Both the position numbers and the translations under genes were made by a program. This document shows, in pieces, positions 23,584 to 60,567 of a stretch of 64,000 bases of DNA. Origin of the DNA: Rhodospirillaceae bacterium (GTDB lineage: Bacteria > Pseudomonadota > Alphaproteobacteria > Rhodospirillales > JABJKH01); NCBI GenBank assembly GCA_018660465.1, contig JABJKH010000008.1:74398-138397 (forward strand), read 5' to 3'. The notes beneath the pieces are model-generated. The model was given only the letters and a program-made list of their open reading frames with translations. It was not told the origin of the DNA and made no database searches. How positions within the stretch are numbered: position 1 is the first letter of the stretch; each line of letters opens with the position of its first letter.

Positions 23584-23648
23584 AAATTTTCGAAAGGTTT
23601 GGAAAACTAAATTAGAAATTTTCCAAACAATCTTACCTAACTTAGGGC

Positions 23649-38141: not shown

Positions 38142-38144
38142 GCC

Positions 38145-38891: not shown

Positions 38892-38913
38892 CAAAATACA
38901 GAAAGTTCGCTCC

Positions 38914-41264: not shown

Positions 41265-41369
41265 GATTATCAGCTTCCTTCGAATTTATGCCGTGGCGGA
41301 AAAATGCAATAATATTTTATAGGGCGCTCGTGAAGTTTATATTAATCGGATATAGGATACTAAACATCT

Positions 41370-42224
41370 ATGAGTGCACTCACAGAAAAAGAATTTATTG
41401 ATGTCCTTGCGGCGACGCTGCCTGTCGAGGATGAGATCATTGCGATCTATTCCGGGTTATGGACGTTCGCGCCGCAGTTTCGTTGGCCTGCAGAAGAGAT
41501 CGGGCCGAGGCTTCTCAAAATCATCGATGAGTTTGTTGGACCTGAGCGGACGCTTATTTTTCCAGCCTACAGCTATCTCGATTTCGCCCGTAACCGGACC
41601 TACGATTTAACCTTGAGCAAGCCTGAGACTGGCGTTCTTCCGGAATCAGCGCTTGCCGACAAAGCTTTCACCCGTTCACGTTCACCGATGAACAGTTATG
41701 CTGTTCGCGGGCCGCGCGCAGAAGAACTTTTGTCGTGCCCCTCCACCACAGCTTGGGGGCCAGACGGTGTTCTCGGTTGGATGTGTGAGGCGGATATTCG
41801 GATTAGCATTCTTGGTGTGTCGTGGTTGTCGTGCAGTTTGATGCATTACGCAGAGGAAACCCTGCAAGTCCCCTATCGCTATTACAAACGTTTCAAGGGG
41901 GAGATTTTTGATAACGGGAAATCGCTCGGCCCCTGCGAAGAAGTTATGTATTCGCGGTCTCTAAATGCGGTTCCTGAGTGGGATATTACCAGCCTGGGTC
42001 CGGCGCTTTCCGATGCCGGCGTGGTCTTGAAAAGTCCCAACCGTCGAATTCCCATGGAGTCCGCGAAGGCCTCAGAATTTCACCGGGTAAATGAAGCCAT
42101 GTTTGCGGCTGACCCGTACGTTTATCATGAAAACGTGGACGAGTTGAAAGCTTGGGTTGCGGACGGCAAAGAGGCTGAAATGGCGACGCTTAAACCTGAG
42201 GAACGTTGGCCGCCGCATGGATAG
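41370..42224 (+). CDS. AAC(3)-family (aminoglycoside N3-acetyltransferase-like) acetyltransferase
   Basis: ...IIAIYSGLWTF... ...TLIFPAYSY... ...TRSRSPMNSYAVRGPRAEELL... ...ILGVSWLSCSLMHYAEE... follows the Antibiotic_NAT fold pattern. In this context it is probably an amino-sugar N-acetyltransferase. Confidence 0.6.
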   Translation: MSALTEKEFIDVLAATLPVEDEIIAIYSGLWTFAPQFRWPAEEIGPRLLKIIDEFVGPERTLIFPAYSYLDFARNRTYDLTLSKPETGVLPESALADKAFTRSRSPMNSYAVRGPRAEELLSCPSTTAWGPDGVLGWMCEADIRISILGVSWLSCSLMHYAEETLQVPYRYYKRFKGEIFDNGKSLGPCEEVMYSRSLNAVPEWDITSLGPALSDAGVVLKSPNRRIPMESAKASEFHRVNEAMFAADPYVYHENVDELKAWVADGKEAEMATLKPEERWPPHG

Positions 42225-42237
42225 ACTTGAACTTCAC

Positions 42238-42362
42238 TCAGGCGTCCTTCGAGACGCGCTTTCAGCGCTCCTCAGGATGAAGGTTTTATTTTATTCCTAG
42301 AGATAGTAAGAAAATTTCTTCATCCTGAGGAGCCGCGTCAGCGGCGTCTCGAAGGACGCTGA
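42238..42362. repeat. About 125-bp imperfect inverted repeat (REP/MITE-like palindromic element) between convergent genes
   Basis: The arms are 42238-42282 and 42318-42362. Outer (cgtccttcgagacgc / gcgtctcgaaggacg) and inner (ctcctcaggatgaag / cttcatcctgaggag) 15-bp segments are perfectly complementary, with a mismatched core between them. Confidence 0.7.
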
Positions 42363-42389
42363 GCGGCACAGACAGGCGTTCTAGGAAAG

Positions 42390-43760
42390 CTAAGATAAAT
42401 TCGCCCGAAGCTTTTTAAAGCGCGCACTGTGAAGCGTTTCATCTTCCACCACGACAAACCGCACCGGCACTTTATAGCGCGCCATTGTTTTATTGCATTC
42501 TAACCGCAAGCGTTCGGAGAGGTCCGCTGGGTCTTCCGGCTCTATCAGTGAAACCCGAGCCTGCACCACCTGTCCCATAATCGGATGCGGTCGTGCTTCG
42601 ACGGCGGCGTTTCGGATGTTAGGGAGTTGCATGAGGACGTTCTCAACCTCCAGCGGAAATACCTTTTTACCGCCGGTATTTATCACTTCGGTTTCGCGTC
42701 CCATGAAGCGGATGTAGCCGTCTTTTTCTTCAACCACATCGCCGGTGCACAGCCAGCCTTCTTCATCGAACGGGTTCGGCGCATTGAGGTAGCCGACCAT
42801 GTTGGCTTCGGACCTGATCCACAGAATGCCATCGGTGATTCTGGTCTCAAACCCCTTGCCACCAACCTTAAGCCATAACGAACCATCGTCCTTAGATTGT
42901 GATCGCAGGACACCCAATTCCGACAACCCGTAGGTCTGTTTAATCCGCGCGCTCGGAAACACCTCACTAAGTTGACTAAGCGTCGTTTCCGGCATGGGCT
43001 CAGTCCCATAGGTAACCAGTTCCACAGACGACAAGTCGTAGACCGCGTATTGCCGGCTCACGATCATGAAATTCAAAAACGTTGGCGTCGTCGGCAGCAA
43101 CGTTACCTTTCCATCCTGAATGGTGCGCGCCATGGTTTCAGGATCGCGCGACGTGGTACAGACCGCCGTTCCGCCATAGGCAAAGCTCGATAGAAACGTA
43201 TTGAACCCGCCGAAGTGATCCATGAGTAAGAAAAGTATGGTGCGCCAGCCTTTGCGCTTTTCAACGAATTTACGGGCGACAAATTCGACGTCCTGCAAAA
43301 TTCCCTTGGGCTTGCCGGTCGATCCTGATGTGAACACCACGAGTCCCGGATGACCTTTTTCATTAAACGTACTGATCAATTCAGGCAGGACGCAATTAGG
43401 CTGTGCCTCCAATACAAAGTCATCGTTTTCATCGAAGCGGTATAGAACCTTCGCACCGCACATGTTTAAAAGTTCCGGCAGCTCCGCATCGACATCACCG
43501 GTCAACGGAACAAGCACTGCACCCCGTTGCATCAGCGCGAACATAAGCGCAGAGGTTGCCGGGCTGTAGTCGCCATAAAACGCGCAGACATCTCCGGCGT
43601 TGATGCCGTCTTCCTCAAGCCGTTTATTCCAAACCTCGATTGAGTCTAAGAATTCTTGATAGGTATATTCCCGGCCGCGCCAAAATAGGGCTGGATCATT
43701 CGGTATCTCAGAAAGCCGATTAATCAGTGTCTCAACTGCGGACGTCGTGGGTGCGGACAT
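42390..43760 (-). CDS. Adenylate-forming enzyme (acyl-CoA/acyl-ACP ligase family)
   Basis: AMP-binding motifs are present: VFTSGSTGKPKGI, QTYGLSELG, WLCTGDVVE, GRETEVINTGGKKVFPLEVE. The start overlaps the ACP stop. Confidence 0.8.
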   Translation of the reverse strand: MSAPTTSAVETLINRLSEIPNDPALFWRGREYTYQEFLDSIEVWNKRLEEDGINAGDVCAFYGDYSPATSALMFALMQRGAVLVPLTGDVDAELPELLNMCGAKVLYRFDENDDFVLEAQPNCVLPELISTFNEKGHPGLVVFTSGSTGKPKGILQDVEFVARKFVEKRKGWRTILFLLMDHFGGFNTFLSSFAYGGTAVCTTSRDPETMARTIQDGKVTLLPTTPTFLNFMIVSRQYAVYDLSSVELVTYGTEPMPETTLSQLSEVFPSARIKQTYGLSELGVLRSQSKDDGSLWLKVGGKGFETRITDGILWIRSEANMVGYLNAPNPFDEEGWLCTGDVVEEKDGYIRFMGRETEVINTGGKKVFPLEVENVLMQLPNIRNAAVEARPHPIMGQVVQARVSLIEPEDPADLSERLRLECNKTMARYKVPVRFVVVEDETLHSARFKKLRANLS

Positions 43761-44002
43761 CAGAAGCTCACTTGGTGTTCTTCAAGAACCATTTTGATTA
43801 ATGGAAAATTCAAAATTTCCACTGTCTGTTCCTCGGTAAACGAAATATCGAATTCCTGCTCCAACGCGAGGACGAGGTTCAAATGGCGGAGCGAATCCCA
43901 TTCTTCCACCGTATCAACGGATGTATCATCACCAATTTCTGATGCCTCAATCTTCAAGACATCGGCCATGACACGCTGCAATCTTTCTACGTTATTCGAC
44001 AT
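43760..44002 (-). CDS. Acyl carrier protein (ACP-1)
   Basis: 80 aa with phosphopantetheine site context ...TVEEWDSLRHLNLVLALE... The start is set at the internal ATG 44002 (GGAGAA SD), not 44047. Confidence 0.75.
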   Translation of the reverse strand: MSNNVERLQRVMADVLKIEASEIGDDTSVDTVEEWDSLRHLNLVLALEQEFDISFTEEQTVEILNFPLIKMVLEEHQVSF

Positions 44003-44016
44003 ATTTTCTCCTGTCT

Positions 44017-45858
44017 TTACTTTGGAAATTCTTCCATGTTGATCCACGCGGGGCAGATGATTTTATCTGCCTTTGTATTGGATAAATCCAGACACCATTC
44101 TGTGTCTTCAACTTGATCAAACCCACGTTTCTCATAAAATTCTGAAACTTGAGCGTTCTTCTTTGTTGGCAAATAACTGCCCGAGATTGTCTTACAACCC
44201 CTCGTACGCGCATTATCTATCACAAATTTTAAGAAAGCGTTTTCCGCCTCGCGACCAAGTGCACGACAGGACAGTAAAAAAGAATCTATCTCTGCCGTCT
44301 CGTCTTTATAGAGAATGATCGCAACCCCAATTGTACCAATCTCAGCCACGTTATCACCCAACCACATGGTAAGCACATCGCTGCCGTCACGATCACTGAA
44401 CGCCCGAATTTCGCCTTCGGTATATCGCTTGGTCGTGAGATTAAACTGGTTGGTTTTTTGGGTCAGTTGAGATGCTCGTGGAATTTGCTTTTCAGTCACC
44501 AAGCCAATTTTGGCCTTGATATCCAAACTCCCAAGATAGTCCTCCAACGACGAAGCGGTTTTGGATAGAGACTTGCGTTGGCGTTCTGCTTGGTAAGATT
44601 TATTGCGTTTCAGGTCGTCATCAGAAACAGTCAAATTATCGAACAAGCCCGCCTCCGATAACTGCCGCCGGAAGGACGATGGATCGCCGCTTAAATGAAG
44701 CACACCAACTTCCGGCAACGCGCCCCGAACCCGATCACATTCAAAGTCCGTATCATCAACAAACACCAGCGCATCAACACCGATATTCAGTTCGTCGGCA
44801 ATGCTGATAAGGTTTTCGGCCTTGTCGGACCAGTTGACCCGCAACGCCGCGAAATGATTTTCCTTTAGGACCATGTCCGGGTGATCTCGGAACACCTCCA
44901 ACACATCGTCCTCGTTGTTCTTTGAACAGACGGCAAGAATGACACCGCGATTATAAAGGTTGAGGACTTCACGTTGGAACGCGACGAAGGAATTTCCCGG
45001 GTATTCAAGGCCAAGACGAATGCCAGACAGACCGTCTTCACCGACGACCCCGCCCCATAAGGTTCCATCACAATCCAGCACCAAACACTTCCGGGCATGG
45101 CCGCTTAGAGCGCGGAAGAACCTGCCGTATTCTTGACCGACAGGCACCAGCGCGTTCTTGCCAATCGGCGCCTTTGCCATCGCCCAATACCGCTCATCGA
45201 AAGCAGATGCAGCACCCAGCCTTGCAAAAAGTCCTTGCAGATCAACGATGTAAACATCGCTGAATTCATTAGCCACCTCCGCCAAGCCCGTATTAAGCTT
45301 AACCATCGCCGCATTCTGCACCCCACCGCTTTGGGCTTCGATGATTCCCAGGGTGGGCCGATGCAGAATAGGAAAGTTATTGACCAAGACTCCCGCAGTT
45401 GTCTGATCTCTCAAAGCAGAAAACTGAGTCCTGAAATGATCGAGGACTCTCTCAATTTCCTGCTCGATGCCTTTTGCCCCCAACGACAAAATTTCGTTTT
45501 GCAAAGCTGGCGATAACAACTCAAGCCACTGAAACAAAATAATCGCATCGGCGTTATGACTAAAAAGATCACTTTTAGGACTAAAGATATCCTGTGCGAT
45601 GGTATCGAAATCACCAACATAAAATTTTGGCTGTAATCCCAAGAGCCCAATTTCGCCAGCTATGACAGGGAGAACGGGTTCGACCGTGATATTGCGCAAG
45701 ATCGCGACACGGTAATCCGTCGCCTCACCATCAGCCTGATCTTCTAAAATATTGCTAACCGACGTGTAGGCGGAATACACTTGTTCTTTACGCAACCGAT
45801 CCATGGCTTTGTTCAGGTCATCCATTCTCTCACCGCTTACTCTTCCATCTTCTGGCAT
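44017..45858 (-). CDS. FkbH-like HAD-IIIC phosphatase / glyceryl-transfer protein
   Basis: HAD-IIIC motif CLVLDCDGTLWGGVVGEDG and a C-terminal GNAT-fold domain with the conserved Cys motif FLLSCRALGRE, 613 aa. Confidence 0.75.
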   Translation of the reverse strand: MPEDGRVSGERMDDLNKAMDRLRKEQVYSAYTSVSNILEDQADGEATDYRVAILRNITVEPVLPVIAGEIGLLGLQPKFYVGDFDTIAQDIFSPKSDLFSHNADAIILFQWLELLSPALQNEILSLGAKGIEQEIERVLDHFRTQFSALRDQTTAGVLVNNFPILHRPTLGIIEAQSGGVQNAAMVKLNTGLAEVANEFSDVYIVDLQGLFARLGAASAFDERYWAMAKAPIGKNALVPVGQEYGRFFRALSGHARKCLVLDCDGTLWGGVVGEDGLSGIRLGLEYPGNSFVAFQREVLNLYNRGVILAVCSKNNEDDVLEVFRDHPDMVLKENHFAALRVNWSDKAENLISIADELNIGVDALVFVDDTDFECDRVRGALPEVGVLHLSGDPSSFRRQLSEAGLFDNLTVSDDDLKRNKSYQAERQRKSLSKTASSLEDYLGSLDIKAKIGLVTEKQIPRASQLTQKTNQFNLTTKRYTEGEIRAFSDRDGSDVLTMWLGDNVAEIGTIGVAIILYKDETAEIDSFLLSCRALGREAENAFLKFVIDNARTRGCKTISGSYLPTKKNAQVSEFYEKRGFDQVEDTEWCLDLSNTKADKIICPAWINMEEFPK

Positions 45859-45860
45859 GG

Positions 45861-46799
45861 CTAAGCATGCTCCAAGAGGCCGCAGTAATTTATCGTGATC
45901 AGCTCCTCAGCCCAACTGCTTTCAGGAACATTTTCCGCTGGCAACGCTAAATCTGAAACGATCTTGAAACCTGCATCCGTGATCAGGTCTCGAATTTCCT
46001 CGGCTGAATGGAAATGATAGACGTGATCCAGCGCCGGGCAATTGGCGCACGTCGACATATAGGCTTGGCCATTTGGTGCCAGCAACTGCTTCGTCCGATC
46101 CATAAACTTTGGCGCATCGTTCACATGCTCCAGGACTTCACCCAGGATAATAAAATCAAAAGTCTGAGACCCGAGATCGGTTTTCAAGTAATCCCCGTGC
46201 ACAAAATTCAGTCGGGATTCATCGACGTTAAACGCTTTAAGAACTTCGCCTGCAGTCTTTATGGATGTTTCGCTGATATCAACGACCGTGCCGATGGCTT
46301 CATCAAACTTGGTCAACGTTGTGGACGTGAACAATCCATGACCGACACCTACCTCTAGGTAGTTCTTCACCTCACCTTTCGGCAATTTATCCAAGAAGAA
46401 CCGGAACAGTTCGTAGTGGTTGGGCCAGAACATGTAGGAGATCAGCAATCCAACCATGTAATACCGCATGACCACCAAATCACTGTAGACCTCGTCAACT
46501 GCGACGGCAGAATCGTCTATCGAATATTTGCCAGTTTTGCGGAATTGAATCTGTGCCGACAAAAAATCCATGCACATTTTGTTGTAAGACCGCGCTGCTT
46601 CCTGGCGCGCGTCATCAGTTGTCAGGAAGCCATTGTTCAGGATCAGGCTTAAGTTTTCAGCAAATTCCCAATATTCAGGACCGCGTGTCGTAAAAAAAGC
46701 CTCAATCCGCTTTTTTTGGAGCGGGTTCTCTGCGGCGATTAGCTCCGCGATGCGCAATAATTCGGGGCAGGAGTCTTGAGTCATCAGGCTAAATTCCAT
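45861..46799 (-). CDS. Class I SAM-dependent methyltransferase
   Basis: ...YLEVGVGHGLFTS... (motif I) and ...FDFIILGEVLEHVNDAPKF... The start is trimmed to Met at 46799 and remains uncertain (alternatives 46784 and 46883). Confidence 0.7.
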   Translation of the reverse strand: MEFSLMTQDSCPELLRIAELIAAENPLQKKRIEAFFTTRGPEYWEFAENLSLILNNGFLTTDDARQEAARSYNKMCMDFLSAQIQFRKTGKYSIDDSAVAVDEVYSDLVVMRYYMVGLLISYMFWPNHYELFRFFLDKLPKGEVKNYLEVGVGHGLFTSTTLTKFDEAIGTVVDISETSIKTAGEVLKAFNVDESRLNFVHGDYLKTDLGSQTFDFIILGEVLEHVNDAPKFMDRTKQLLAPNGQAYMSTCANCPALDHVYHFHSAEEIRDLITDAGFKIVSDLALPAENVPESSWAEELITINYCGLLEHA

Positions 46800-46988
46800 A
46801 ACGCCACAGGCATTGGTAACTTTCCGACAATTCCACCCCAGGCAAAACCACCCCTGGCGGCAAGATAATAACGGAATTTTCACCTTTGCTACTTAAGTTT
46901 GAACACCATGATAAAATCCCTTCCTTGATAAAGAGTTACCGGAAGGACGACTTGAAAAATTAAAGTAGCTAATGAACGGAAAAAATTG

Positions 46989-47294
46989 ATGCTGGATAAG
47001 CAATTAGCAATGAATTTGATGCAGGAAAGCCTGGACAGTCTTGCCCGGTCCGGAACCCTGAAAAATCAGATAGCAATGACCGATGAAACCGTCCTGATGG
47101 GAAGCGGCGCCGACAGCGGCCTGGACTCCCTCGGATTTGTTAATTTCGTCATGGACGTGGAAGACCGCCTTCAGCAACAATTAGACGGCGACTATCCGGT
47201 AATTCTGACCGACATCGGCGGGTTTGATATCAACAATCCGATCCTTACCGCTGGCGTGCTTGCTGATCATTTGGTCGGCCTCGCTGCTGGCTAA
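46989..47294 (+). CDS. Acyl carrier protein (ACP-2)
   Basis: About 101 aa with the classic attachment motif ...GADSGLDSLGFVNFVMDVE... It is the first gene of the rightward operon. Confidence 0.65.
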   Translation: MLDKQLAMNLMQESLDSLARSGTLKNQIAMTDETVLMGSGADSGLDSLGFVNFVMDVEDRLQQQLDGDYPVILTDIGGFDINNPILTAGVLADHLVGLAAG

Positions 47295-47295
47295 T

Positions 47296-48012
47296 ATGAA
47301 CACCGACAAACAGCATTGCGTTATTTCCGGCACCAGCCGGGGATTAGGACGCGCCTTGGCGGAGCATTTTCTGGGCCTAGGGTATTCGGTCGCTGGCTGC
47401 AGCCGGGGTGACGCAACGATAGATCATCCCGACTATTCCCACAGCGTCGTCGATGTCCGCGATGAAGCCGAGGTTCAAAAGTGGGCGCGGGATGTACGGC
47501 GCGAGGCAACCCGTGTAGATGTCTTAATTTGCAACGCAGGACTGGCGCGTTCAGCACTCTTTCTACCCATGACACCAGGCGACGTGTTTGAGGATTTTCT
47601 GGGGACGAATTTCGCGGGCGTATTCTACGTTCTGCGCGAATTCTCCAAGCTCATGATCCGCCAAGGGTCTGGACGTATTTTAACAATCTCATCAACAATG
47701 GCGGCCCTTCACCAGGAAGGTACGGCGGTCTACTCAGCGACGAAATCAGCCGTCACTGAAATGACCAAGGTCTTGGCCCGCGAACTGGCACCGCAGAACA
47801 TTACCTGCAACATCATTGCGCCTGCGATGATGGAAACTGATGCGTCTGCAGAACTGGCAAAGTCGGAAGAATGGCGCGACCAAATGCTCGCGCTTCAGAC
47901 CTTCCCCAGAATTATTGAGATGCAAGAAATCTGTCATGCCGCCGATTTCTTTGTTTCCGACAAAGCCGCCAGCATCACCGGACAAGTCGTCTACATCGGA
48001 CTGGTGGATTAG
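47296..48012 (+). CDS. SDR-family oxidoreductase (3-oxoacyl-ACP reductase-like)
   Basis: VISGTSRGLGRALA cofactor motif and catalytic YSATKSAV (YxxxK). The start is set at ATG 47296, right after the ACP-2 stop. Confidence 0.8.
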   Translation: MNTDKQHCVISGTSRGLGRALAEHFLGLGYSVAGCSRGDATIDHPDYSHSVVDVRDEAEVQKWARDVRREATRVDVLICNAGLARSALFLPMTPGDVFEDFLGTNFAGVFYVLREFSKLMIRQGSGRILTISSTMAALHQEGTAVYSATKSAVTEMTKVLARELAPQNITCNIIAPAMMETDASAELAKSEEWRDQMLALQTFPRIIEMQEICHAADFFVSDKAASITGQVVYIGLVD

Positions 48013-48013
48013 C

Positions 48014-48709
48014 GTGAACAGCCCAGCCCGCCGCATCGCAACCGCTGACGACTATCAGGTCGAAACCATTAAAACTGGCCGCTGGAAGGAAAATTCCTAC
48101 GTGGTTCAACACGTGGCGAGCCGGGAAATTGCGCTTATTGATCCGGGCAACGACGCAGACGCGATATTCGAGAGCATCGAACATATGGACGGCATTCCGA
48201 AGCTGGTCTTATTAACCCACGCGCATTTCGATCATGTCGGCGCACTTGATGCGGTCTGCACGCGCTACGATCTGCCGTTTTACATTCATTCAGGCGATCA
48301 CCGCCTGCTGCAACGCGCAACCCTGTATGCCATGAGTTTCGAGCGCCAAGTGGTGACAATCCCGGAGGGCTATCAACCCTTGGAAACCTCAACCCCGTCC
48401 TGGTCCGGTGACCCGGTAGAGTTTATCCACACCCCAGGGCATACGGACGGTGGGGTATGTTATTATTGGGACGGTATTTGTTTCTCCGGTGACACCCTTC
48501 TGAATAAACTTGTGGGCCGATCGGACTTACCTGGATCAAGCGGCGAAGGCCTTAAGAAATCTGTCAGTAAGTTACTCGACTCTCTACCACCTGATACGTT
48601 GTTGTTTCCTGGACATGGTGGGACTTGGTCGGTTGCAGATGCGCGTAGCTGGTGGCAAGACTATTCAGAAGACCCGCCACAGTATGCCATGGAAGGCGCT
48701 TTTAAATGA
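48014..48709 (+). CDS. MBL-fold metallo-hydrolase (glyoxalase II-like; possible thioesterase)
   Basis: LLTHAHFDHVGAL (HxHxDH) plus downstream ...HTPGHTDGG... and ...FPGHG. GTG start at 48014, directly after the SDR stop. Confidence 0.7.
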   Translation: MNSPARRIATADDYQVETIKTGRWKENSYVVQHVASREIALIDPGNDADAIFESIEHMDGIPKLVLLTHAHFDHVGALDAVCTRYDLPFYIHSGDHRLLQRATLYAMSFERQVVTIPEGYQPLETSTPSWSGDPVEFIHTPGHTDGGVCYYWDGICFSGDTLLNKLVGRSDLPGSSGEGLKKSVSKLLDSLPPDTLLFPGHGGTWSVADARSWWQDYSEDPPQYAMEGAFK

Positions 48710-49716
48710 TCGCCCCGCTGATGAGAGACGACTACGGCGTGGGCGTGGCTGGAGTTGGAAAATTCCTGCCCGAAGGCGTCATTACGAACGAAAGCCTTGA
48801 AGCAACGTCCGGCATGAAAGCAGCTGAAATCGTTGAGAAAACTGGCATCGTCACCCGGCGCAAAGCATCCGAAGACGACGTCGCATCGGAAATGTGTGCC
48901 GCTGCCGCCCGGGATGCGATGGAGATGGCAGGCATTGAGCCCGAACAACTGGGCCAGATCATCACCTGCACGTTTACCGGCGATTATACCTACCCCGCCG
49001 TATCGTGCCGCATCCAGGATTTGTTAGGGGCCTATAACGCAGGCGTCTTTGATTTGATGGCGAATTGCACCGGGTTTCAAGTTGGCCTGGGCGTTGCCTC
49101 TGACCGCATGCTTGTTGATCCGAGCGTTGAGTACTCGCTGGTCATTGGTGCCGCTCTACAATCCAGGTTTATCGATTATTCGAAGGCTGGCTCTGCGATG
49201 TATTTCGGTGATGGCGTGGGGGCTGCTGTGTTGAAGCAAGTGCCCGCCGGTTATGGCATTCTTTCCAACGATGTGTCGGCAAATGGTCGCGCTTTCAATT
49301 CGGTTCGTTTGAGAGGCGGCGGTTCCAGCCATCCTATGCGACCAGATAACATCAACGAGGGCCTGCAGTATTATGACATCGACGGGCTGGAAGTCTGGAA
49401 GCAAGTCGTCCAGAACCAACCCAAATCAATGCGCCGAGCGCTGGAAAAAATTGGCAAGACCACAGAAGACGTGGACTTCTTTATTTTCCATCAAGCCAAC
49501 CTGCGCCTGATTGAATTTCTCATGGGGAAAATGCGGCTGCCCATGGACAAGACCTATACCAATGTCGAAGAATACGGCAACACGGCGGACGCATCTCAGG
49601 CGATTACGCTCTGTGATGCGGTCACGAACAATCTCTTAAAGCGCGACGATCTTGTCGCAATTTCGGGGGTTGGTGCCGGGTTCATCTTTGGGACAACCAT
49701 GATGAGGTGGTATTGA
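48706..49716 (+). CDS. 3-oxoacyl-ACP synthase III (FabH-like KAS III)
   Basis: Cys-His-Asn triad contexts are present: ...DLMANCTGFQVG..., ...FIFHQANLRLIE..., ...YGNTADASQ... ATGA overlap with the upstream gene. Confidence 0.8.
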   Translation: MIAPLMRDDYGVGVAGVGKFLPEGVITNESLEATSGMKAAEIVEKTGIVTRRKASEDDVASEMCAAAARDAMEMAGIEPEQLGQIITCTFTGDYTYPAVSCRIQDLLGAYNAGVFDLMANCTGFQVGLGVASDRMLVDPSVEYSLVIGAALQSRFIDYSKAGSAMYFGDGVGAAVLKQVPAGYGILSNDVSANGRAFNSVRLRGGGSSHPMRPDNINEGLQYYDIDGLEVWKQVVQNQPKSMRRALEKIGKTTEDVDFFIFHQANLRLIEFLMGKMRLPMDKTYTNVEEYGNTADASQAITLCDAVTNNLLKRDDLVAISGVGAGFIFGTTMMRWY

Positions 49717-50978
49717 TGACTTACAACCCAGATGACCGCCAAGCTGCTGAATTAAAGTTTTCTGATCTCCATGAAGGGTATCAATCCGAACTTTCGCACA
49801 CCATTTCGCAAGATGATCTCAACACCTTCGCCGCCCTCACGGGTGACTTTAATCCCATTCATATTGATGCGGAATACGCCCGCACGACATCGTTTGGAAA
49901 ACCCATCGTGCATGGCATGCTGACGTCTTCGTTTATCTCTACGATGATCGGCATGCTGTTGCCCGGTCGAGGCGCTCTGTGGATGGAGCAAACTCTAAAA
50001 TTCACAAGACCCGCCTTTGTTGGCGATTCGATAAGAGTGGTGGCGACTGTCAAACAGCTCTCTACCGCGACCAACACCATGGTCCTAGACGTAAAAATTT
50101 CCAATCAAGACGACACCACCATTGTCACCGGCCAATCCACCGTAACCCTGACTGCAGGGAAAACTGCGGATGAAGCAGCTGCAACCGATGCAAAGCCCAT
50201 CGAAGCCCCGCAAAGTAGCAAGAATAAAGAAGCGACAGGTGGAGTCATTTTTATTTCCGGCGGCAGTGGTGGCATCGGGGCTGCATGCGCTAAAAACCTC
50301 GCAGCCCAAGGATATGCCATCGCGGTAAACTATAATTCGAACCAAAAAGGTGCAGATGCGGTGGTCGCCGAAATATCTGCTGCGGGAGGCCAAGCCATTT
50401 CTGTCCAAGGCGATGTCGCCAGTGAAGCCGATGTCGAAAGAATTTTTTCTGATATTGAAAGCCAATTAGGCACCGTGTCAGGGATCGTTCACTGCGCAGC
50501 CCCTGAGCCCATCCCGACTGCCTTCGAAGACACAAACTGGGCAATATTCGAAGCGACCCTTTCGACCCAAATCGGCGGTGCCCGCCACTGCACCCATCGC
50601 GCGCTTGCAAACATGATGGAGAACTCGACAGGCAGTATCGTCCTTATTGGATCAATCTACGGCGATAACGTGCCACCTGCGATGCAGTCCGCTTATGTAA
50701 CGGCGAAGGCCGCACTCGCGGGGTTCTCTCGGGCTCTTGCTGTTGAATTGGGGCCAAAGGGAATTCGCGTTAATGTCGTCGCCCCTGGCATGACGCAAAC
50801 ACCGATGCTGGCGAACCTACCGAACAAAGCAAAGATGTTGGCGCAGATGAATACGCCGCTGCGCCGTCTTGCTGACCCAGAAGACATTGCCAACGCGGTC
50901 GCGTTTCTCATCAGCGATAACGCGCGTCATATTACTGGCGAAACCCTGCATGTTTCTGGTGGAGTTTCGATGTCGTAA
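49716..50978 (+). CDS. MaoC-like (R)-hydratase/dehydratase fused to an SDR ketoreductase
   Basis: N-terminal hot-dog hydratase-2 motif FAALTGDFNPIHIDAEYA. The C-terminal SDR has ISGGSGGIGAACA and YVTAKAAL. The ATG overlaps the KAS III stop (TGATG). Confidence 0.75.
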   Translation: MTYNPDDRQAAELKFSDLHEGYQSELSHTISQDDLNTFAALTGDFNPIHIDAEYARTTSFGKPIVHGMLTSSFISTMIGMLLPGRGALWMEQTLKFTRPAFVGDSIRVVATVKQLSTATNTMVLDVKISNQDDTTIVTGQSTVTLTAGKTADEAAATDAKPIEAPQSSKNKEATGGVIFISGGSGGIGAACAKNLAAQGYAIAVNYNSNQKGADAVVAEISAAGGQAISVQGDVASEADVERIFSDIESQLGTVSGIVHCAAPEPIPTAFEDTNWAIFEATLSTQIGGARHCTHRALANMMENSTGSIVLIGSIYGDNVPPAMQSAYVTAKAALAGFSRALAVELGPKGIRVNVVAPGMTQTPMLANLPNKAKMLAQMNTPLRRLADPEDIANAVAFLISDNARHITGETLHVSGGVSMS

Positions 50979-50979
50979 A

Positions 50980-52332
50980 TTACGGCTGCTCTACTTCCTC
51001 AAGCAGGCCCACACGACTGAATTCCCGCACACATTCATCAAACGCGAAAATCGGCATGTCGTTGTCTTCGGCGATTTGCAGCAAGTCCTTGGAACCATCA
51101 GCCTCGCCCATCATGGCGTAGTATGCGTTGCCAATCACTGTGCCCTGCCCGCCCGTGCCCCAGCCGTGTTGGTAGGGAAAGACGCCGTACTTGGATAAAA
51201 ATGGCGTAACCTGATAGGTGCCTTTGTAGCGGCGCGTCCGTTCCACGGTCATCAATGCGGCCCACGCAACTTGTAGAGATTCCAGTAAATATTCAGGCCG
51301 AACCAATTCTAGATCGTCCGCTGAGGAATGATATTCCGCATATCCCCCCGGCCGAGACCCGCCTCGGGTAATATTCGCAACTGCCAAGCGATAGCCGACA
51401 CTGTTCAGGTGCAGCACGTCGGCCCCGCCATAAATATTAAATTTCCGAGTGACCACTTCACGGCCACAAAATTCCATCGCGTGCTTTACGGCACGGTCGA
51501 ATATCGTATCACCGGCAAACGTCTGATCGAGGCTCACCGGCGCACCATCACCGCAAATTCCCAACTGATAACCGCCAATGGTTTTCGCCAAGCGTTCGGG
51601 GTAATTGGCCATGTAGGCAATCACCCCAATGCCTTCGGGCCACAGTGCCAAGCGGTACGAATAATGCCGGTCTGGCATTTCAGCCAGCATGCGAAAAATC
51701 TCCACCGCCGCGACCACGCCAGATAGATTATCGTTGGCGCCACGGGGATGGCAGAGATAGCTGTTAATTAGGATTTCTTCTTCGACTTCACCCGGAAGAT
51801 AGGCTTCTCCAATCCGTAAAACCCCATCATAGAGATCCGTATCGATATGAACCTTATAGCGCCCGGGCTTTAATTCCTCCACCAAATCATAAGGGGCCGA
51901 CAGCCCCCAAGCCTCCCGGTAATAGGTCTGACGCATAGGATAGGCATGGGGCAGATTTGGATCAGTCGCAATTTTTTCTTTTAATTCGTCCAGGTCCATT
52001 TCACCGCTGAACGACTGACTGTAGATCCATACACAATAGGGATGAATGTCAAAGTCCAGCACCCGCGTCCCGTCCGGTCCTTCAACCCAAGCCTCATTGA
52101 CCTTGAATTCCTTGGGGATGGTCCAGTCGAACACTTCTTGCCCAGAGGGAAACTCCGTCACCTCCAAGGGCAAATATTTATCAATGACATCGAGCGAGTC
52201 TTTATACCCAGGCCCCAAAAGAGACCGATAGATGGGAAACAACGCCTCCATCATCGACCACATGGACTGGGAATTCTTTTCCCCCGGCATGGTAAGCCCC
52301 GGGAAACCGACAAAATTGCCTTCTGCGTTCAT
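50980..52332 (-). CDS. Aminopeptidase-like domain protein (DUF2172/DUF4910, COG4310-type 'polysaccharide biosynthesis protein with aminopeptidase-like domain')
   Basis: ...MWSMMEALFPIYRSLLGPGYKDSLDVIDKYLPLEVTEFPSGQEVFDWTIPKEFKVNEAWV... matches my memory of this family's N-terminal region. 450 aa. Confidence 0.55.
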   Translation of the reverse strand: MNAEGNFVGFPGLTMPGEKNSQSMWSMMEALFPIYRSLLGPGYKDSLDVIDKYLPLEVTEFPSGQEVFDWTIPKEFKVNEAWVEGPDGTRVLDFDIHPYCVWIYSQSFSGEMDLDELKEKIATDPNLPHAYPMRQTYYREAWGLSAPYDLVEELKPGRYKVHIDTDLYDGVLRIGEAYLPGEVEEEILINSYLCHPRGANDNLSGVVAAVEIFRMLAEMPDRHYSYRLALWPEGIGVIAYMANYPERLAKTIGGYQLGICGDGAPVSLDQTFAGDTIFDRAVKHAMEFCGREVVTRKFNIYGGADVLHLNSVGYRLAVANITRGGSRPGGYAEYHSSADDLELVRPEYLLESLQVAWAALMTVERTRRYKGTYQVTPFLSKYGVFPYQHGWGTGGQGTVIGNAYYAMMGEADGSKDLLQIAEDNDMPIFAFDECVREFSRVGLLEEVEQP

Positions 52333-52615
52333 CGTCTTTCTCTAGCTGAGGATTGAGGGGGTATCTTACAGAGCAACTCTTAAAATTGGTTAACGTTTAG
52401 GAGCGTTTGGAACGGCAAATTAAAAAGAAGATATCTTGGAACACCGGAAAATTTGTCGCCTGTTGGCCCGGAACAGAAACTATTAGGCGTCCGAGAACCG
52501 GGTCGGTCTGGCTCACATAAATTTGATTGCCTTGACCATCTATTATTTTGTTAGATACGCTTTGATCACGTAACATACGACTGGGTTTCTTATTTTTCAA
52601 AGTAAGGAATACTGA

Positions 52616-53401
52616 ATGTTAAAGCGAACTACTTCCTGCATACTTATCGCGGCGTTGTTTTGGTTTATTTCAACTCCCGCTAAGGCTGAAGAAAAATTAA
52701 CGGTCGCGGTTATAGACCTGTTCCCCTTTGGAAAAATCGACCGGTCTGGTTTGCAATCTGGTCTGTACGTGGATATTGCGTCAGCCTTAGAAGAAGAATT
52801 GCAATTCCCCATAAAGAAGCATGTGCTGCCGTTTAAGCGCGCCTTTCGTAACATCTTAGCCGGAAAAATGGATTTATTTATATCCTTCAAACGCGATGAT
52901 TTGGCTTCTAAACTGAAATATCTTGGAAGCATCGGATGTACCAAAATGCTTATGGTATCAAGTAAACGAACAAGTATTTTGAGCCTTAGTGACCTGACGG
53001 GGAAGCGGGTTGGGTTCGTTCAAGGAGCTTCGACTGGCCCGATTTACGAGAAAAAATTTAAGGTTCTGCCTTTATATTTTCCGAGTACAACGCCTTTGAT
53101 AAATTTATTGATGCTGAACAGGTTTGACGCTTTCATGGTGAATAGCATTGTTTTTAATTCTTATCATCACAATAAATACGGCAACGTAAAACTATCAGCA
53201 AACTGGAGGGATTATCTGGGTTCCGTATTGACCACACGGGTTCATGATATTCACATATCGATCTCCAGAAAATCTAAGAACTTCAAACGTGCCGGTGACA
53301 TTGAGAAAGCAATTTCTGCCCTCCAGCGAACAAATAAATTTAAAGAATCCTTTCGGCGTTGGGGGTCTGTGGATGGCGGAAACTGTGAAGGGCTACATTA
53401 G
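52616..53401 (+). CDS. Periplasmic substrate-binding domain protein (family-3 SBP-like), orphan
   Basis: Signal peptide MLKRTTSCILIAALFWFISTPAKA, then ...LTVAVIDLFPFGKID...GLYVDIASAL... No permease or ATPase partner is nearby. The gene is AT-rich. Confidence 0.5.
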   Translation: MLKRTTSCILIAALFWFISTPAKAEEKLTVAVIDLFPFGKIDRSGLQSGLYVDIASALEEELQFPIKKHVLPFKRAFRNILAGKMDLFISFKRDDLASKLKYLGSIGCTKMLMVSSKRTSILSLSDLTGKRVGFVQGASTGPIYEKKFKVLPLYFPSTTPLINLLMLNRFDAFMVNSIVFNSYHHNKYGNVKLSANWRDYLGSVLTTRVHDIHISISRKSKNFKRAGDIEKAISALQRTNKFKESFRRWGSVDGGNCEGLH

Positions 53402-53608: not shown

Positions 53609-54484
53609 ATGACCAGCGACGAATATTTTTCACATAATTGCGACCTGTGTGGCTCTGATGATGCCGCCGAGATTGAATGCTCTAATTTCTACACCAATAA
53701 CCAACCCCTGCATGTCTGCAAGAGCTGTGGCTTGGTGTATATCAAAGCCCGCCGTTCGGCCAATCGGATCGCTGAGGTGTGGTCGGAAGAACTTTATGGC
53801 CCGACCTATACAGCCCGAATTCCCGCCGTAAAAGCCCGCCAGACCTATGTCGCAGGCTTTGTCGATGACTCCATTGGGTTTAAGGGAAAATCCGTCTGCG
53901 ACATCGGCGGCGGCGAAGGCCAGTTTCTGAAAATGATCATGGACCCGGAATATGGCGCCAACGTCTACACCGTCGAGCCCTCAAAAGAAAACTGCGACAT
54001 CATGTCGGCGGATGGGATCGAAACCTTTTGTGGCAGCGTCGAGGACTTCATTGAATCTGAGGAAAGCAAAACCCGAAAGTTTGATATCGTCACCGTCATG
54101 TGGACGGTCGAAGCCAGTCAATCCTGCCGCACGATGATCGATGCGGCGTATGATATTTTGAAGGACGACGGGCATCTGGCGATCTCGACTGGCAGTCGTT
54201 TGTTGGTGCCGTTCAAAAAACCGCTCAATTATTACTTAGGGCCTCGCGCCGCAGACACCCACCCCATTCGGTTTTCTGAGAATTCACTGACCGGGTTGTT
54301 TGCCGAAAGCGGGTTTGAGCGCACCCACATCAACCGCTTTATCGACACCGACTACATGGTCGCCATCGGCAAAAAGACCGATAAATCTAAGAAGATCGAC
54401 TGGCCAAAGGATAATTGGGAAGACGTCGTCGATTTCTTCAATCGCTGGCACAAAGAAACCCAGGATCATTACCCGGCCGCGTAA
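53609..54484 (+). CDS. SAM-dependent methyltransferase with N-terminal zinc ribbon
   Basis: CDLCGS...CKSCGLVY Zn-ribbon, then VCDIGGGEGQFL (motif I) and ...DIVTVMWTVEAS... Confidence 0.7.
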   Translation: MTSDEYFSHNCDLCGSDDAAEIECSNFYTNNQPLHVCKSCGLVYIKARRSANRIAEVWSEELYGPTYTARIPAVKARQTYVAGFVDDSIGFKGKSVCDIGGGEGQFLKMIMDPEYGANVYTVEPSKENCDIMSADGIETFCGSVEDFIESEESKTRKFDIVTVMWTVEASQSCRTMIDAAYDILKDDGHLAISTGSRLLVPFKKPLNYYLGPRAADTHPIRFSENSLTGLFAESGFERTHINRFIDTDYMVAIGKKTDKSKKIDWPKDNWEDVVDFFNRWHKETQDHYPAA

Positions 54485-54492
54485 CCTTTCAT

Positions 54493-55884
54493 ATGGTGGG
54501 CTTGCCTATGGCAATGCAGGTTGAACATCTGGAATTTGAGACGGGCGTGCTGGGCGCGCCCGTTGCGCGTCTGATCTCAGGTAACGGCGGCAATTCGTCT
54601 AAACCGAACGCCTGGCTGATTTCATGCCGCGTGCCATCTGAAGACGCTAATAGAATTCAACGCCACAAAGCGGACGGGTTTAGAGAGATCGAATCTCTCG
54701 TTACCTTCAGACGGCCTATCACAGCTATTCCCGGCAGGGCCACGCCTCAACTCGCAATTGAAGCCGATTTCGAGGCGTGTTTGGAGATCGGCAAGACCTC
54801 ATTTCAGTTCGACCGCTTTCATTCAGACCCCGGCGTGCCGAACGCTTTGGCAGATATACTCAAGCAAACGTGGGTCGAGAACTCCCTCAAAGGCCGCGCA
54901 GATGCTGTCTTCGTTACCCGCGACGGTGACCGGGCGACTGGCTTTAATTTGTGCCGAATAGACGGGCGCGAAGTCACGATTGATTTGATTGCCGTTGCCA
55001 ACGACATGAAAGGTCGGGGCCTCGGTAAACAGCTCATTGAACAAGCCCTCAATCACTATGCAGGAAAAGCCGATTACATTCGTGCCGGTACCCAGACCAA
55101 TAACGCGGTCTCCAATCGACTTTACCTTGGAACCGGGTTTTCGGAATTCTCTCAACAGAAAACTCTGCATTGGATAAATCCTGCCAACGGGCCTGCGACT
55201 GGACTGACAATTGGGACGGCTATTTTTTCTCGGATGGATTCAAATCGGCTGCCTGGCAAAGCGCTGACGGATATCGCCGGGCGGCCCATGCTCGGCCGGG
55301 TCATAGATCAGCTTCGAAAGTGTGATCCGCTAATTATCGCGACTTCGAGTCGAGCCCTTGATGCGCCTATCGTTAACTTTGCCAAAAACGAAGGCGTCGC
55401 AATATTTAGAGGATCAGACACTGACGTTCTGGGCCGTGCGGCAGATTGCGCCCGCCACTTCGGCCTGGATGCCCTTGTGCGGATTTCAGGGGACAGTCCT
55501 TTTATCGATGCTGCCTTGATCGAACAAATGGTGGAAGAACACCGCAGTATCGTGCCGGACATCACAACCAACGTCTTTCCAAGAACCCTGCCCCCGGGCA
55601 TGAGCGTCGAAGTCATTTCGACATCTGTCCTCCATCGATTACTAGGCATGACCAACGACTTGGATGACCATGAGCACGTCACAAAGTATATTTATGGCAA
55701 CCCAGAAAAATTCCATATTCACCCGGTGACGTTTAATAAAGAAAGTTACGACAAGATACACTTGGCGGTGGATACGCAGCACGATTTAGACCGCGCAATT
55801 TGGATTGCGGAAAACACGACGGAAGTTTCATTGGGTCGGGTAACTGAATTGGCTCGGAAATGGGACAAGAGACAGGACACATGA
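54493..55884 (+). CDS. GNAT acetyltransferase / SpsF-type cytidylyltransferase fusion protein
   Basis: The N-terminal half is ...IDLIAVANDMKGRGLGKQLIEQAL...NNAVSNRLYLGTGF (GNAT). The C-terminal half is ...AIFSRMDSNRLPGKALTDIAGRPML...ISGDSPFID (CTP_transf_3). The start is set at ATG 54493, not 54415. Confidence 0.7.
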   Translation: MVGLPMAMQVEHLEFETGVLGAPVARLISGNGGNSSKPNAWLISCRVPSEDANRIQRHKADGFREIESLVTFRRPITAIPGRATPQLAIEADFEACLEIGKTSFQFDRFHSDPGVPNALADILKQTWVENSLKGRADAVFVTRDGDRATGFNLCRIDGREVTIDLIAVANDMKGRGLGKQLIEQALNHYAGKADYIRAGTQTNNAVSNRLYLGTGFSEFSQQKTLHWINPANGPATGLTIGTAIFSRMDSNRLPGKALTDIAGRPMLGRVIDQLRKCDPLIIATSSRALDAPIVNFAKNEGVAIFRGSDTDVLGRAADCARHFGLDALVRISGDSPFIDAALIEQMVEEHRSIVPDITTNVFPRTLPPGMSVEVISTSVLHRLLGMTNDLDDHEHVTKYIYGNPEKFHIHPVTFNKESYDKIHLAVDTQHDLDRAIWIAENTTEVSLGRVTELARKWDKRQDT

Positions 55885-60030: not shown

Positions 60031-60567
60031 ATGGCGACAGCACCTCAAATAGAAACCCAACACCTGCGACTGGTCGCCTTTTCTGAAAAGCATTTGGCGG
60101 AACGCTATGTCAGCTGGCTGAATGACCCTGATGTTGTTCGATATAGTGAGCAACGCCATGACACGCATACATTGGAAAGCTGTCGCGAATTCTTGAAATC
60201 CTTCGACGACACGCCGAATTTGTATTGGGCGATTGAAGAAACTGCGACCGGCCGCCACATCGGTAATATCGACGCCCACATTGACGCGCCAAACAAAGTT
60301 GCCGACGTTGGCATCGTCCTAGGTGAGAAAGAAATTTGGGGCAAAGGCTATGGCTTTGAGGCTTGGACTGGCGTGCTGGATTATCTTCTTGGTCCTGGCG
60401 ACATGCGCAAGGTGACGGCTGGCACCATGGCAACCAACGTCGGAATGCTGGGCATTATGCGTAAGGCCAGGATGGTGGAGGAAGGCAGGCGGCTAAAAAA
60501 TTACCTTCTGGATGGCAAGGAAGTCGATCTCATCCTGGTTGCACGGTTTGCTGATGACCAAGACTGA
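60031..60567 (+). CDS. GNAT family N-acetyltransferase (RimJ/RimL-like)
   Basis: ...IETQHLRLVAFSEKHLAERYVSWLNDPDVVRYSE... and ...WGKGYGFEAW..., typical of the Acetyltransf_3 type. Confidence 0.75.
   Translation: MATAPQIETQHLRLVAFSEKHLAERYVSWLNDPDVVRYSEQRHDTHTLESCREFLKSFDDTPNLYWAIEETATGRHIGNIDAHIDAPNKVADVGIVLGEKEIWGKGYGFEAWTGVLDYLLGPGDMRKVTAGTMATNVGMLGIMRKARMVEEGRRLKNYLLDGKEVDLILVARFADDQD

Follow-up and report, generated by a model that had tools for sequence, protein, structure and literature searches.

In Pseudomonas syringae pv. tabaci, the genes vioS (a 3-oxoacyl-acyl carrier protein (ACP) synthase III, KAS III), vioR (a 3-oxoacyl-ACP reductase), acp, vioB, and vioM give rise to N-(3-hydroxy-1-oxobutyl)-2-O-methylviosamine on flagellin (PMC3927599). 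Deletion of vioR abolishes the modified sugar, and orfB/C/D of P. aeruginosa PAK are homologues of the acp, vioS, and vioR set (PMC3927599). In Campylobacter jejuni NCTC 11168, the flagellar glycosylation locus contains an FkbH-domain gene, cj1302 (PMC7099621), and the next locus tag, cj1303, is annotated as FabH2, besides the housekeeping cj0328c (PMC3229698). At one end of the same locus lies Cj1295, which is needed for di-O-methylglyceroyl-pseudaminic acid and was proposed to remove the N5 acetyl group; the N-acetyltransferase Cj1296/7 is listed with it (PMC3068675). Herein, a 64,000-nucleotide stretch of a Rhodospirillaceae bacterium (assembly GCA_018660465.1, contig JABJKH010000008.1, positions 74,398 to 138,397 of the forward strand), referred to as the window, was analyzed. 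It contains five plus-strand genes (46989-50978) that lie divergent from an FkbH operon. The initial annotation of these genes had stated that no KAS III/ACP route linked to flagellin was described; vioS, vioR, and acp of P. syringae and cj1302 and cj1303 of C. jejuni contradict this statement.

The window joins two separable modules into one cassette of about nine genes, and the five plus-strand genes are half of it. Module A consists of the carrier ACP-2, a short-chain dehydrogenase/reductase (SDR1), a metallo-beta-lactamase (MBL)-fold hydrolase, KAS III, and an AMP-dependent ligase. Module B consists of FkbH, its carrier ACP-1, and a MaoC dehydratase fused to a second SDR (MaoC::SDR), with or without a methyltransferase. 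The cassette is a dedicated acyl-carrier pathway and not housekeeping fatty acid synthesis (FAS). Very probably, the five genes and the FkbH operon form one carrier-protein pathway that makes a short oxygenated acyl group for a flagellin sugar. The two half-cassettes and the region between them are as follows.

42390..43760, minus strand: AMP-dependent ligase, 456 aa, module A (AMP-binding and AMP-binding_C)
43760..44002, minus strand: ACP-1, 80 aa, the FkbH carrier (PP-binding 3e-6, WDSL motif)
44017..45858, minus strand: FkbH, 613 aa, glyceryl-ACP loading phosphatase/transferase (TIGR01686 FkbH domain, 292.6 bits with a cut-off of 146.65 bits; HAD-IIIC; FkbH_N)
45861..46784, minus strand: class I S-adenosylmethionine methyltransferase, 307 aa from its ATG, optional in module B (Methyltransf_23/11/12/25)
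46785-46988 (methyltransferase ATG, used in the gene calls of metagenome-assembled genomes, MAGs) or 46884-46985 (upstream GTG): divergent intergenic region between the half-cassettes
46989..47294, plus strand: ACP-2, divergent acyl carrier protein, 101 aa, module A (LDSxGFV motif, family profile)
47296..48012, plus strand: SDR1, FabG-like 3-oxoacyl reductase, 238 aa, module A (adh_short/adh_short_C2 1e-43)
48014..48709, plus strand: MBL-fold hydrolase, glyoxalase-II-like, 231 aa, module A (Lactamase_B 2e-25)
48706..49716, plus strand: KAS III, FabH-like condensing enzyme, 336 aa, FkbH-associated clade, module A (ACP_syn_III N and C)
49716..50978, plus strand: MaoC (R-hydratase/dehydratase)::SDR ketoreductase fusion, 420 aa, module B (MaoC_dehydratas and adh_short_C2)

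Five closely packed plus-strand genes with named products had been described at the outset. All five open reading frames (ORFs) were found at the coordinates given then, and the domains, motifs, and junction letters were verified. ACP-2 ends with TAA at 47292-47294 and is followed by the SDR1 ATG at 47296; SDR1 ends with TAG at 48012, with the MBL GTG at 48014; the MBL and KAS III genes overlap by ATGA (48706-48709); and the KAS III and MaoC::SDR genes overlap by TGATG (49714-49718). Independent gene calls in MAG records with an identical KAS III gave the same products of 101, 238, 231 (or 257), 336, and 420 aa. More than 40 loci, spread over many phyla, show this gene order. Therefore, the five-gene arrangement is far beyond chance.

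The intergenic region common to both operons was likewise confirmed, with either methyltransferase start; the methyltransferase ORF reaches an upstream GTG at 46883. A promoter and terminator scan of 46600-51300 found sites no commoner than in shuffled sequences and none in the divergent intergenic region, where a consensus sigma-70 site was not found. An Rfam search of 41000-53000 gave nothing above the gathering score. At the other end of the plus-strand run, the stops of the MaoC::SDR gene and of a convergent Cj1295-like gene are 1 nt apart (50976-50982), which leaves no space for an intergenic terminator.

The distribution of the fusion was surveyed by searching one genome per species with a MaoC::SDR alignment, and homologues of the window proteins were then located at each locus. 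FkbH was counted in the 43 non-redundant loci with a full-length fusion and sufficient downstream sequence. It was present in 41 of these 43 loci and stood directly downstream of the fusion (<1.2 kb, same strand) in 32. Of those 32, 22 have FkbH immediately next to the fusion, and about 10 have an intervening methyltransferase. ACP-1 follows FkbH in nearly all loci. KAS III, MBL, SDR1, and ACP-2 were all missing from 21 of the 48 loci with a full-length fusion, and these 21 belong to Bacteroidota, Desulfobacterota, Planctomycetota, Gemmatimonadota, Nitrospinota, and a Woesearchaeote. The fusion pairs with FkbH even without the KAS III set. This indicates that the fusion is the partner of FkbH and ACP-1 within module B and not a member of a KAS III-centred FAS.

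A reverse survey of metagenome contigs was anchored on ACP-2 and gave 27 long loci. The full combined set was found in about 20 of them. The order ACP-2, SDR1, MBL, KAS III was fixed, with ACP-2 at its head in every case. Five ACP-2 loci contained ACP-2, SDR1, MBL, a KAS III, and the AMP-ligase without FkbH and without the fusion. In these FkbH-less loci, identity to the window proteins is 38-58% for ACP-2, SDR1, MBL, and the ligase but only 24-28% for the KAS III. In loci with FkbH but without the fusion, the window-type KAS III is still present at about 50% identity. In two loci, L115 and L143, the window-type KAS III directly follows FkbH-ACP-1, and the order in L115 is FkbH, ACP-1, KAS III, ACP-2, SDR1, MBL. 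The window-type KAS III co-varies with FkbH and differs in the FkbH-less loci, and thus it is apparently matched to an FkbH-derived primer.

An FkbH-less version is seen in locus L134 at 9235-15897 (also in L132, L139, L152, and L165), with GNAT, ACP, SDR, MBL, a distinct KAS III, and AMP-ligase. The FkbH-less cassette adjoins FdtA and DegT in an O-antigen/capsule-type locus with Wzi, Wzz, GNAT, and GT2, and it is a candidate for supplying 3-amino-3,6-dideoxyhexoses with 3-hydroxyacyl amide groups.

In the usual collinear cassette, module B is flanked by two module-A genes, those of KAS III and the ligase, and the order is ACP-2, SDR1, MBL, KAS III, fusion, methyltransferase (where present), FkbH, ACP-1, ligase. 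Most other lineages keep both halves collinear, on a single strand. The methyltransferase-FkbH-ACP-1-ligase block is inverted in Rhodospirillales and in one Bacteriovoracaceae locus, and the divergent layout in the window is due to this inversion.

The initial interpretation was a specialised ACP, KAS III, and ketoreductase set in a flagellin island, tied to the FkbH operon. That part stands. The five genes are not an autonomous unit, however, because the fusion travels with FkbH and ACP-1 without the KAS III set, and module A travels without FkbH and the fusion. Co-regulation with the FkbH operon had been suggested; the link is real and goes beyond co-regulation, since the modules are separable and yet combined across loci, which argues for one pathway. 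The label of a type II FAS or polyketide synthase (PKS) does not fit: an enoyl reductase, FabD, and an elongating ketosynthase were not found in the window, which has only KAS III, two ketoreductase-type SDRs, and one MaoC dehydratase. As for the product, a short hydroxy-acyl group for an amino sugar is still the most likely kind, but the 3-hydroxybutyryl group given as the example is not the best supported, as the window-type KAS III co-varies with FkbH.

The KAS III matches the thiolase-fold ACP_syn_III domains PF08545 (1.8e-15) and PF08541 (5.5e-26). It passed NF006829 (267.7 bits, cut-off 249) and failed the fabH model TIGR00747 (244 bits, cut-off 292.1). In alignments with solved FabH, the catalytic positions are taken by Cys (MANCTGF), His (FHQAN), and Asn (YGNTADAS), a triad that is invariant in 28 orthologues. 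The score was 187 bits to B. subtilis FabHA versus 87-128 bits to CorB, PqsD, BioZ, and ZhuH-type entries. The loss of the CoA-adenine-stacking Trp of FabH was considered as a sign of an acyl-ACP primer and was dropped, the position being variable in both KAS III clades.

The assignment of ACP-2 is the weak point among the five genes. Pfam and NCBIfam gave zero matches at E <= 0.001, and the single-sequence AlphaFold model predicted four helices but with a poor pLDDT of 43. The GLDSLGF motif is present, and LDSxGFV with its Ser is invariant in 18-21 orthologues. The family profile matches the solved ACP 2l4b (E = 1.7e-4) with the Ser in register. In loci L008 and L022, a phosphopantetheinyl transferase (PPTase) gene lies within the same gene cluster as the cassette.

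SDR1 scored 137-153 bits with the FabG models, under their equivalog cut-offs. It has the Gly-rich cofactor motif and the Ser-Tyr-x3-Lys set (YSATK, YxxxK) of classical SDR ketoreductases. Its orthologues are 43-71% identical and hold a fixed place in the cassette. The MBL protein scored 68 bits with the GloB model TIGR03413 (cut-off 200.8, not reached), and by its sequence it is a relative of GloB, not GloB itself. Its metal ligands, THAHFDH (HxHxDH) and a later His, Asp, and His, are kept in 24 orthologues. The best solved relatives are 2zwr, the hydroxyacylglutathione hydrolase 7l0b, and YcbL 2xf4; the nearest ones are of the glyoxalase-II type, hydrolysing 2-hydroxyacyl thioesters. The MBL protein is therefore a probable acyl-thioester hydrolase, and the earlier suggestion of a releasing thioesterase is plausible.

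The fusion contains MaoC_dehydratas (PF01575, 1.4e-23) and adh_short_C2 (6e-60), and 3170 homologues were found at E <= 1e-20. Among 20 homologues, G43, D44, N46, P47, and H49 of the hydratase-2 motif GDxNPxH are invariant in the MaoC domain. In the SDR domain of the same 20, Y327/K331 (YVTAK) and G182/G186/G188 are invariant and S313 is nearly invariant. Enoyl-ACP reductases of the FabI/FabL type have a Tyr-x6-Lys spacing. Both SDRs of the window have Tyr-x3-Lys, and the FabL model gave 159 with a cut-off of 328, so that neither is assigned as an enoyl-ACP reductase. A 1011-aa ORF in locus L036 was considered as a Rosetta-stone protein of fusion plus FkbH and was rejected as a spurious long ORF of a high-GC genome, the real fusion being in another frame.

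The solved relatives of the AMP-ligase are acyl-CoA ligases and the amide ligase Cfl. The ligase is missing from nearly all FkbH-only loci (weak matches in two) and is present in most module-A loci, including the FkbH-less ones, with 50-59% identity.

FkbH relatives were collected by a HMMER search of 1.84 billion representatives, which gave 14101 relatives, and six long ones were scanned. In P0133, P0184, P0183, and P0154, all from other organisms, a free-standing FkbH is fused to a hexapeptide-repeat acyltransferase (LbH), GNAT, alpha/beta-hydrolase, or VOC/glyoxalase domain, a hint that FkbH-based acylation systems form a broader family beyond polyketide synthases. Other long relatives are fused to nonribosomal peptide synthetase or radical-SAM proteins.

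The setting of the cassette is an alphaproteobacterial-type flagellar region with FlgE, FlgI, FlgK, FlaF, and FlbT. The features below are some of the flagellar and glycosylation genes of the window and the direct neighbours of the cassette.

20291-22273, minus strand: Maf
23649-24827, minus strand: flagellin
26770: NeuB
41370..42224, plus strand: AAC(3)-family N-acyltransferase, candidate enzyme of the last step, transfer to the sugar amine (Antibiotic_NAT 5.5e-19)
50980..52332, minus strand: DUF4910/DUF2172 aminopeptidase-like protein (DUF4910 2e-63, DUF2172, Peptidase_M28, HTH_47)

A glycosylation island of about 40 kb adjoins the flagellar genes and encodes NeuB, 3 cytidylyltransferases, and 2 DegT aminotransferases, together with a PseB-like dehydratase, a formyltransferase, AsnB, HisH/HisF-like proteins, and GNATs. 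A protein identical to the window KAS III is found on contigs of uncultured marine Rhodospirillales MAGs, e.g. GCA_018669295.1. The N-acyltransferase adjoins the ligase in Rhodospirillales relatives (44-60% identity), and homologues of 25-31% identity occur in L025, L044, L048, L049, and L052. The DUF4910/DUF2172 protein is likened to the C. jejuni Cj1295 family by description only, and its gene is kept in flagellar versions of the cassette.

The neighbours of the cassette are sugar-nucleotide and glycosyltransferase genes in every lineage examined. In Sediminibacterium, NeuB, a cytidylyltransferase, Gfo/Idh/MocA, DegT, and GNAT lie near the module, with HisH/HisF after it. In Anaerosolibacter carboniphilus, the full cassette is surrounded by tetratricopeptide repeat (TPR)-GT2 proteins, FdtA, PPTase, GNAT, DegT, and RmlA/C/B; this is a dTDP-3-amino-3,6-dideoxyhexose pathway, offering one amine. 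NeuB or DegT homologues lie <10 kb away in many further loci. Flagellin and Maf are neighbours only in Rhodospirillales relatives, where flagellin genes lie 4.7 kb from the fusion gene. Since its neighbours are always sugar genes, the cassette is a portable unit that supplies amino sugars with an acyl group. From this context, the target in the window is most likely a flagellin nonulosonic acid.

Several features of the island were also observed. The Maf-type flagellin glycosyltransferase gene (20291-22273) is convergent with the gene of a TPR+GT41 protein (18232-20274), and two more proteins, one of them TPR-rich, show weak GT9 matches (25580-26650, 60512-62134). The combination of TPR and glycosyltransferase is an FlmG-like architecture, and the locus is a candidate for encoding two distinct classes of flagellin glycosyltransferase. 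The three cytidylyltransferase genes (31264-31968, 54415-55884, 57143-57883), one with a fused GNAT domain, stand alongside two DegT, two Gfo/Idh/MocA oxidoreductases, and a single NeuB. Three cytidylyltransferases with one NeuB suggest the synthesis of at least two CMP-activated sugar derivatives. Next to a HisH/HisF-like pair comes a 369-aa protein that has an N-terminal CxxC...CxxC and no Pfam match (37527-40023), and these genes may provide the amidotransferase for an acetamidino group. In Sediminibacterium (L043, 14262-15750), this HisH/HisF pair lies just downstream of the FkbH module, with one gene of unknown function between them.

A family-3 periplasmic solute-binding protein with a signal-peptide-like N-terminus (52616-53401) lies within the otherwise cytoplasmic glycosylation island, and its gene keeps its place on other contigs with the identical KAS III. 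The G+C content is 0.42-0.46 at the TPR-GT41, Maf, and flagellin genes (18001-24000) versus about 0.51 in the remaining window. The convergent N-acyltransferase and AMP-ligase genes are separated by 165 nt (42225-42389), which form a long near-perfect hairpin with arms of about 60 nt, at -82.9 kcal/mol (z = -10.4 versus shuffles). The hairpin occurs once in the window. Its Rfam matches are all sub-threshold (LPR69, E = 0.004), and it may be a terminator working in both directions or a palindromic element, either mobile or like a repetitive extragenic palindrome (REP).

From the gene associations, which were observed directly, we infer each chemical step of the following pathway. FkbH would take 1,3-bisphosphoglycerate and load the glyceryl group onto ACP-1. 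The MaoC domain would dehydrate glyceryl-ACP to enol-pyruvoyl/pyruvoyl-ACP, which the fused SDR would reduce to lactyl-ACP; the fusion would be a free-standing counterpart of the dehydratase-ketoreductase (DH-KR) pair in the FkbH loading modules of trans-acyltransferase (trans-AT) polyketide synthases. The methyltransferase would add an O-methyl group. The KAS III would be primed with the C3 unit for one condensation with malonyl-ACP-2, and SDR1 would reduce the 3-oxo group to give 3,4-dihydroxypentanoyl-ACP-2 or, with the methyltransferase, 3-hydroxy-4-methoxypentanoyl-ACP-2. The MBL protein would hydrolyse the thioester, and the AMP-ligase would re-activate the acid, either as an acyl-CoA for the AAC(3)-like N-acyltransferase or as an acyl-AMP that would form the amide directly. 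The Cj1295-like protein may unmask the acceptor amine. The acyl group would finally go to the amino group of a pseudaminic/legionaminic-type sugar that is attached to flagellin by Maf or an FlmG-like enzyme.

A series arrangement of the two modules with a C5 hydroxy- or methoxy-acyl product is favoured because of the KAS III swap, the L115/L143 order, the overlap of the KAS III and fusion genes, and the single amine in Anaerosolibacter. Its chance is judged to be a little short of even, and several points weigh against it. The roles of the MBL protein and the ligase are the weakest steps, and FkbH-only loci manage without both. In C. jejuni, whose flagellar glycosylation locus also holds an FkbH-domain gene and a second FabH, the sole known glycerate-derived product, the 2,3-di-O-methylglyceroyl group, shows neither C2 extension nor dehydration. 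The five FkbH-less module-A loci may share one lineage, which would weaken the argument from the KAS III swap. The six long FkbH representatives scanned include no protein in which FkbH is fused to MaoC or SDR. The window encodes neither a malonyl transferase, which is not among its genes, nor a PPTase, which was not found by tblastn with the PPTases from cassette clusters elsewhere. The source organism, an uncultured marine Rhodospirillales, is known solely as a MAG.

The modules could also work in parallel. Acetyl-CoA and malonyl-ACP-2 would then give 3-hydroxybutyryl-ACP-2, with optional dehydration by MaoC and release by the MBL protein, and the result would be an N-(3-hydroxybutanoyl) nonulosonic acid with the FkbH product on the second amine. 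This accords with the two amines of nonulosonic acids, with the amino-sugar genes that adjoin module A in the absence of FkbH, matching the VioS/VioR/ACP logic of P. syringae, and with a KAS III closer to genuine FabH (187 bits, B. subtilis FabHA) than to specialised KAS III (87-128 bits). However, MaoC::SDR cannot belong to such a route, as it pairs with FkbH in loci without KAS III. In addition, the window KAS III falls in the clade that co-varies with FkbH and not in that of the FkbH-less loci, and the full cassette of Anaerosolibacter serves a one-amine sugar. A parallel arrangement is thus judged unlikely. A transfer without any condensation is improbable: the KAS III would move an FkbH-derived O-methylated glyceroyl or lactoyl group between carriers or onto the sugar, with a C3 product. 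Several KAS III-like enzymes are acyltransferases, and the known ones often lose the His and Asn that malonyl decarboxylation requires, whereas these residues are invariant here in 28/28 orthologues. The second ACP and the FabG-like reductase, which always accompany this KAS III, would also have no role. An argument for a transfer comes from C. jejuni, with Cj1295, Cj1296/7, cj1302, and cj1303 at neighbouring tags and a known product that is an un-extended C3 group; proteins of these kinds, a Cj1295-like one among them, are encoded in the window.

FkbH, an ACP, and a FabH-like enzyme are the defining trio of tetronate cassettes, and two ACPs are present in the window. A small lactone could arise if the FabH-like enzyme joined an FkbH-derived hydroxyacyl-ACP to a 3-oxoacyl-ACP, or if a 4-hydroxy-3-oxopentanoyl thioester cyclised, such 4-hydroxy-3-oxoacyl thioesters being prone to lactonise. 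Yet SDR1 would remove the 3-oxo group, module A retains the same MBL without FkbH, Agg4/Agg5-type partners are absent, and the cassette is inside sugar-nucleotide/glycosyltransferase clusters in every lineage examined. A tetronate or butenolide product is therefore very improbable. Smaller still, and practically negligible, is the chance that these are housekeeping fatty acid synthesis genes that merely lie near flagellar genes. The KAS III does pass the NCBIfam subfamily NF006829, but it failed the TIGR00747 fabH model (244 vs 292), ACP-2 fails every ACP model, and fabD, fabF, fabZ, and plsX were not found nearby in the window. The genes are patchy across many phyla, always as a cassette within glycan loci, and C. 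jejuni also has its housekeeping FabH, cj0328c, separate from FabH2.

The surface chemistry, antigenicity, and phage/lectin recognition of flagella, capsules, and O-antigens are determined by the N-acyl groups that pseudaminic and legionaminic acids bear, and the genes for unusual acyl groups are largely unassigned, including the origin of the di-O-methylglyceroyl group of C. jejuni. The comparative result provides a testable parts list of two portable modules combined in more than 40 loci from many phyla. Cultured carriers are Anaerosolibacter carboniphilus DSM 103526, the module-B-only Sediminibacterium roseum SYL130, Massilia sp. SM-13, and Thalassospiraceae LMO-SO8. Should the modules act in series, the cassette predicts sugar N-acyl groups that are new and supplies two free-standing enzymes that would make lactyl-ACP from a glycolytic intermediate. 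A broader proposal is put forward tentatively and well short of an even chance: the cassette may be an undescribed, phylum-spanning, glycerate-primed mini-PKS, built of two portable modules that also work alone, making a new C5/C6 hydroxy-/methoxy-acyl N-substituent on nonulosonic acids (flagellin, O-antigen, capsule) and on dTDP-3-amino-3,6-dideoxyhexoses. In the open-access literature searched, the cassette, its two-module structure, FkbH with a free-standing DH::KR in glycan biosynthesis, and such a route for a nonulosonic acid were not found described. The open-access literature on FkbH with flagellin, nonulosonic, or polysaccharide gave only the C. jejuni FlaGrab paper and unrelated work.

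Among known systems, the trans-AT FkbH loading modules resemble module B in that the DH::KR, FkbH, ACP gene order mirrors their domain order. In FR901464 (DH*-KR*) and bryostatin (BryA), FkbH charges an ACP with glycerate, the DH dehydrates glyceryl-ACP to pyruvoyl-ACP, and the KR reduces it to lactyl-ACP. The window differs by its free-standing proteins, a MaoC single hot-dog instead of the double hot-dog DH of a PKS, and a glycan instead of a polyketide setting; its DH and KR are coupled to FkbH/ACP by gene order only (41/43 loci, 32 adjacent). The FkbH loading modules of polyketide synthases have been tabulated as giving D-lactate-ACP (PMC7901079).

With type II FAS initiation (FabH, FabG, FabZ/FabA, AcpP), the window shares the KAS III triad, a FabG-like reductase, a hot-dog dehydratase, and a carrier. 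It lacks the enoyl reductase, FabD, and elongating ketosynthase, its ACP is too divergent, its dehydratase is of the MaoC type and tied to FkbH, and the genes lie in a glycosylation island. The tetronate cassettes of RK-682, agglomerin, and tetronomycin share with it the trio of FkbH, its own ACP, and a FabH-like enzyme, with a glycerate-derived ACP thioester as substrate. In contrast, the window is without a polyketide/fatty-acyl donor pathway and Agg4/Agg5-type enzymes, has an extra KR, MBL, and ligase, and belongs to the sugar clusters. Group II of the Aeromonas polar flagellin glycosylation islands encodes ACP, 3-oxoacyl-ACP reductase, AMP-dependent synthetase, LuxE, and LuxC (PMC7874193). 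It shares with the window an ACP, a FabG-like reductase, and an AMP-ligase in an island with pse genes, whereas KAS III, FkbH, MBL, and MaoC are not reported for it and LuxC/LuxE point to fatty aldehyde chemistry. Shewanella sfmABCDE was considered as a precedent and rejected; it includes a reductase and is otherwise unrelated.

The Cj1295-cj1303 region of C. jejuni is alike in its aminopeptidase-like protein, N-acetyltransferase, FkbH-domain protein, and second FabH, likened by annotations. In the window, the Cj1295/FkbH-type set is represented by the DUF4910/DUF2172/M28 protein (50980-52332), FkbH (44017-45858), and the methyltransferase (45861-46784), the last of which is an addition to the C. 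jejuni-type protein set. A MaoC::SDR fusion or an MBL hydrolase is not reported for C. jejuni in the papers cited above. Unlike the product predicted for the window, the C. jejuni group keeps both glycerate oxygens and has no chain extension. The 2,3-di-O-methylglyceroyl and 3,4-dihydroxypentanoyl groups are isobaric (C5H8O3 in both cases). The Vio system shares with the window a dedicated KAS III, a FabG-like reductase, a small ACP, a methyltransferase, and an N-acyltransferase in a flagellin glycosylation cluster. It differs by its dTDP-viosamine acceptor and C4 product, and by having no FkbH, MaoC::SDR, MBL, or AMP-ligase. Compared by gene content and not by sequence, the window has the genes and the island setting of Vio-type acylation. 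The cassette itself is widespread and uncharacterised, and it belongs to a kind of system that is already known from Pseudomonas and Campylobacter.

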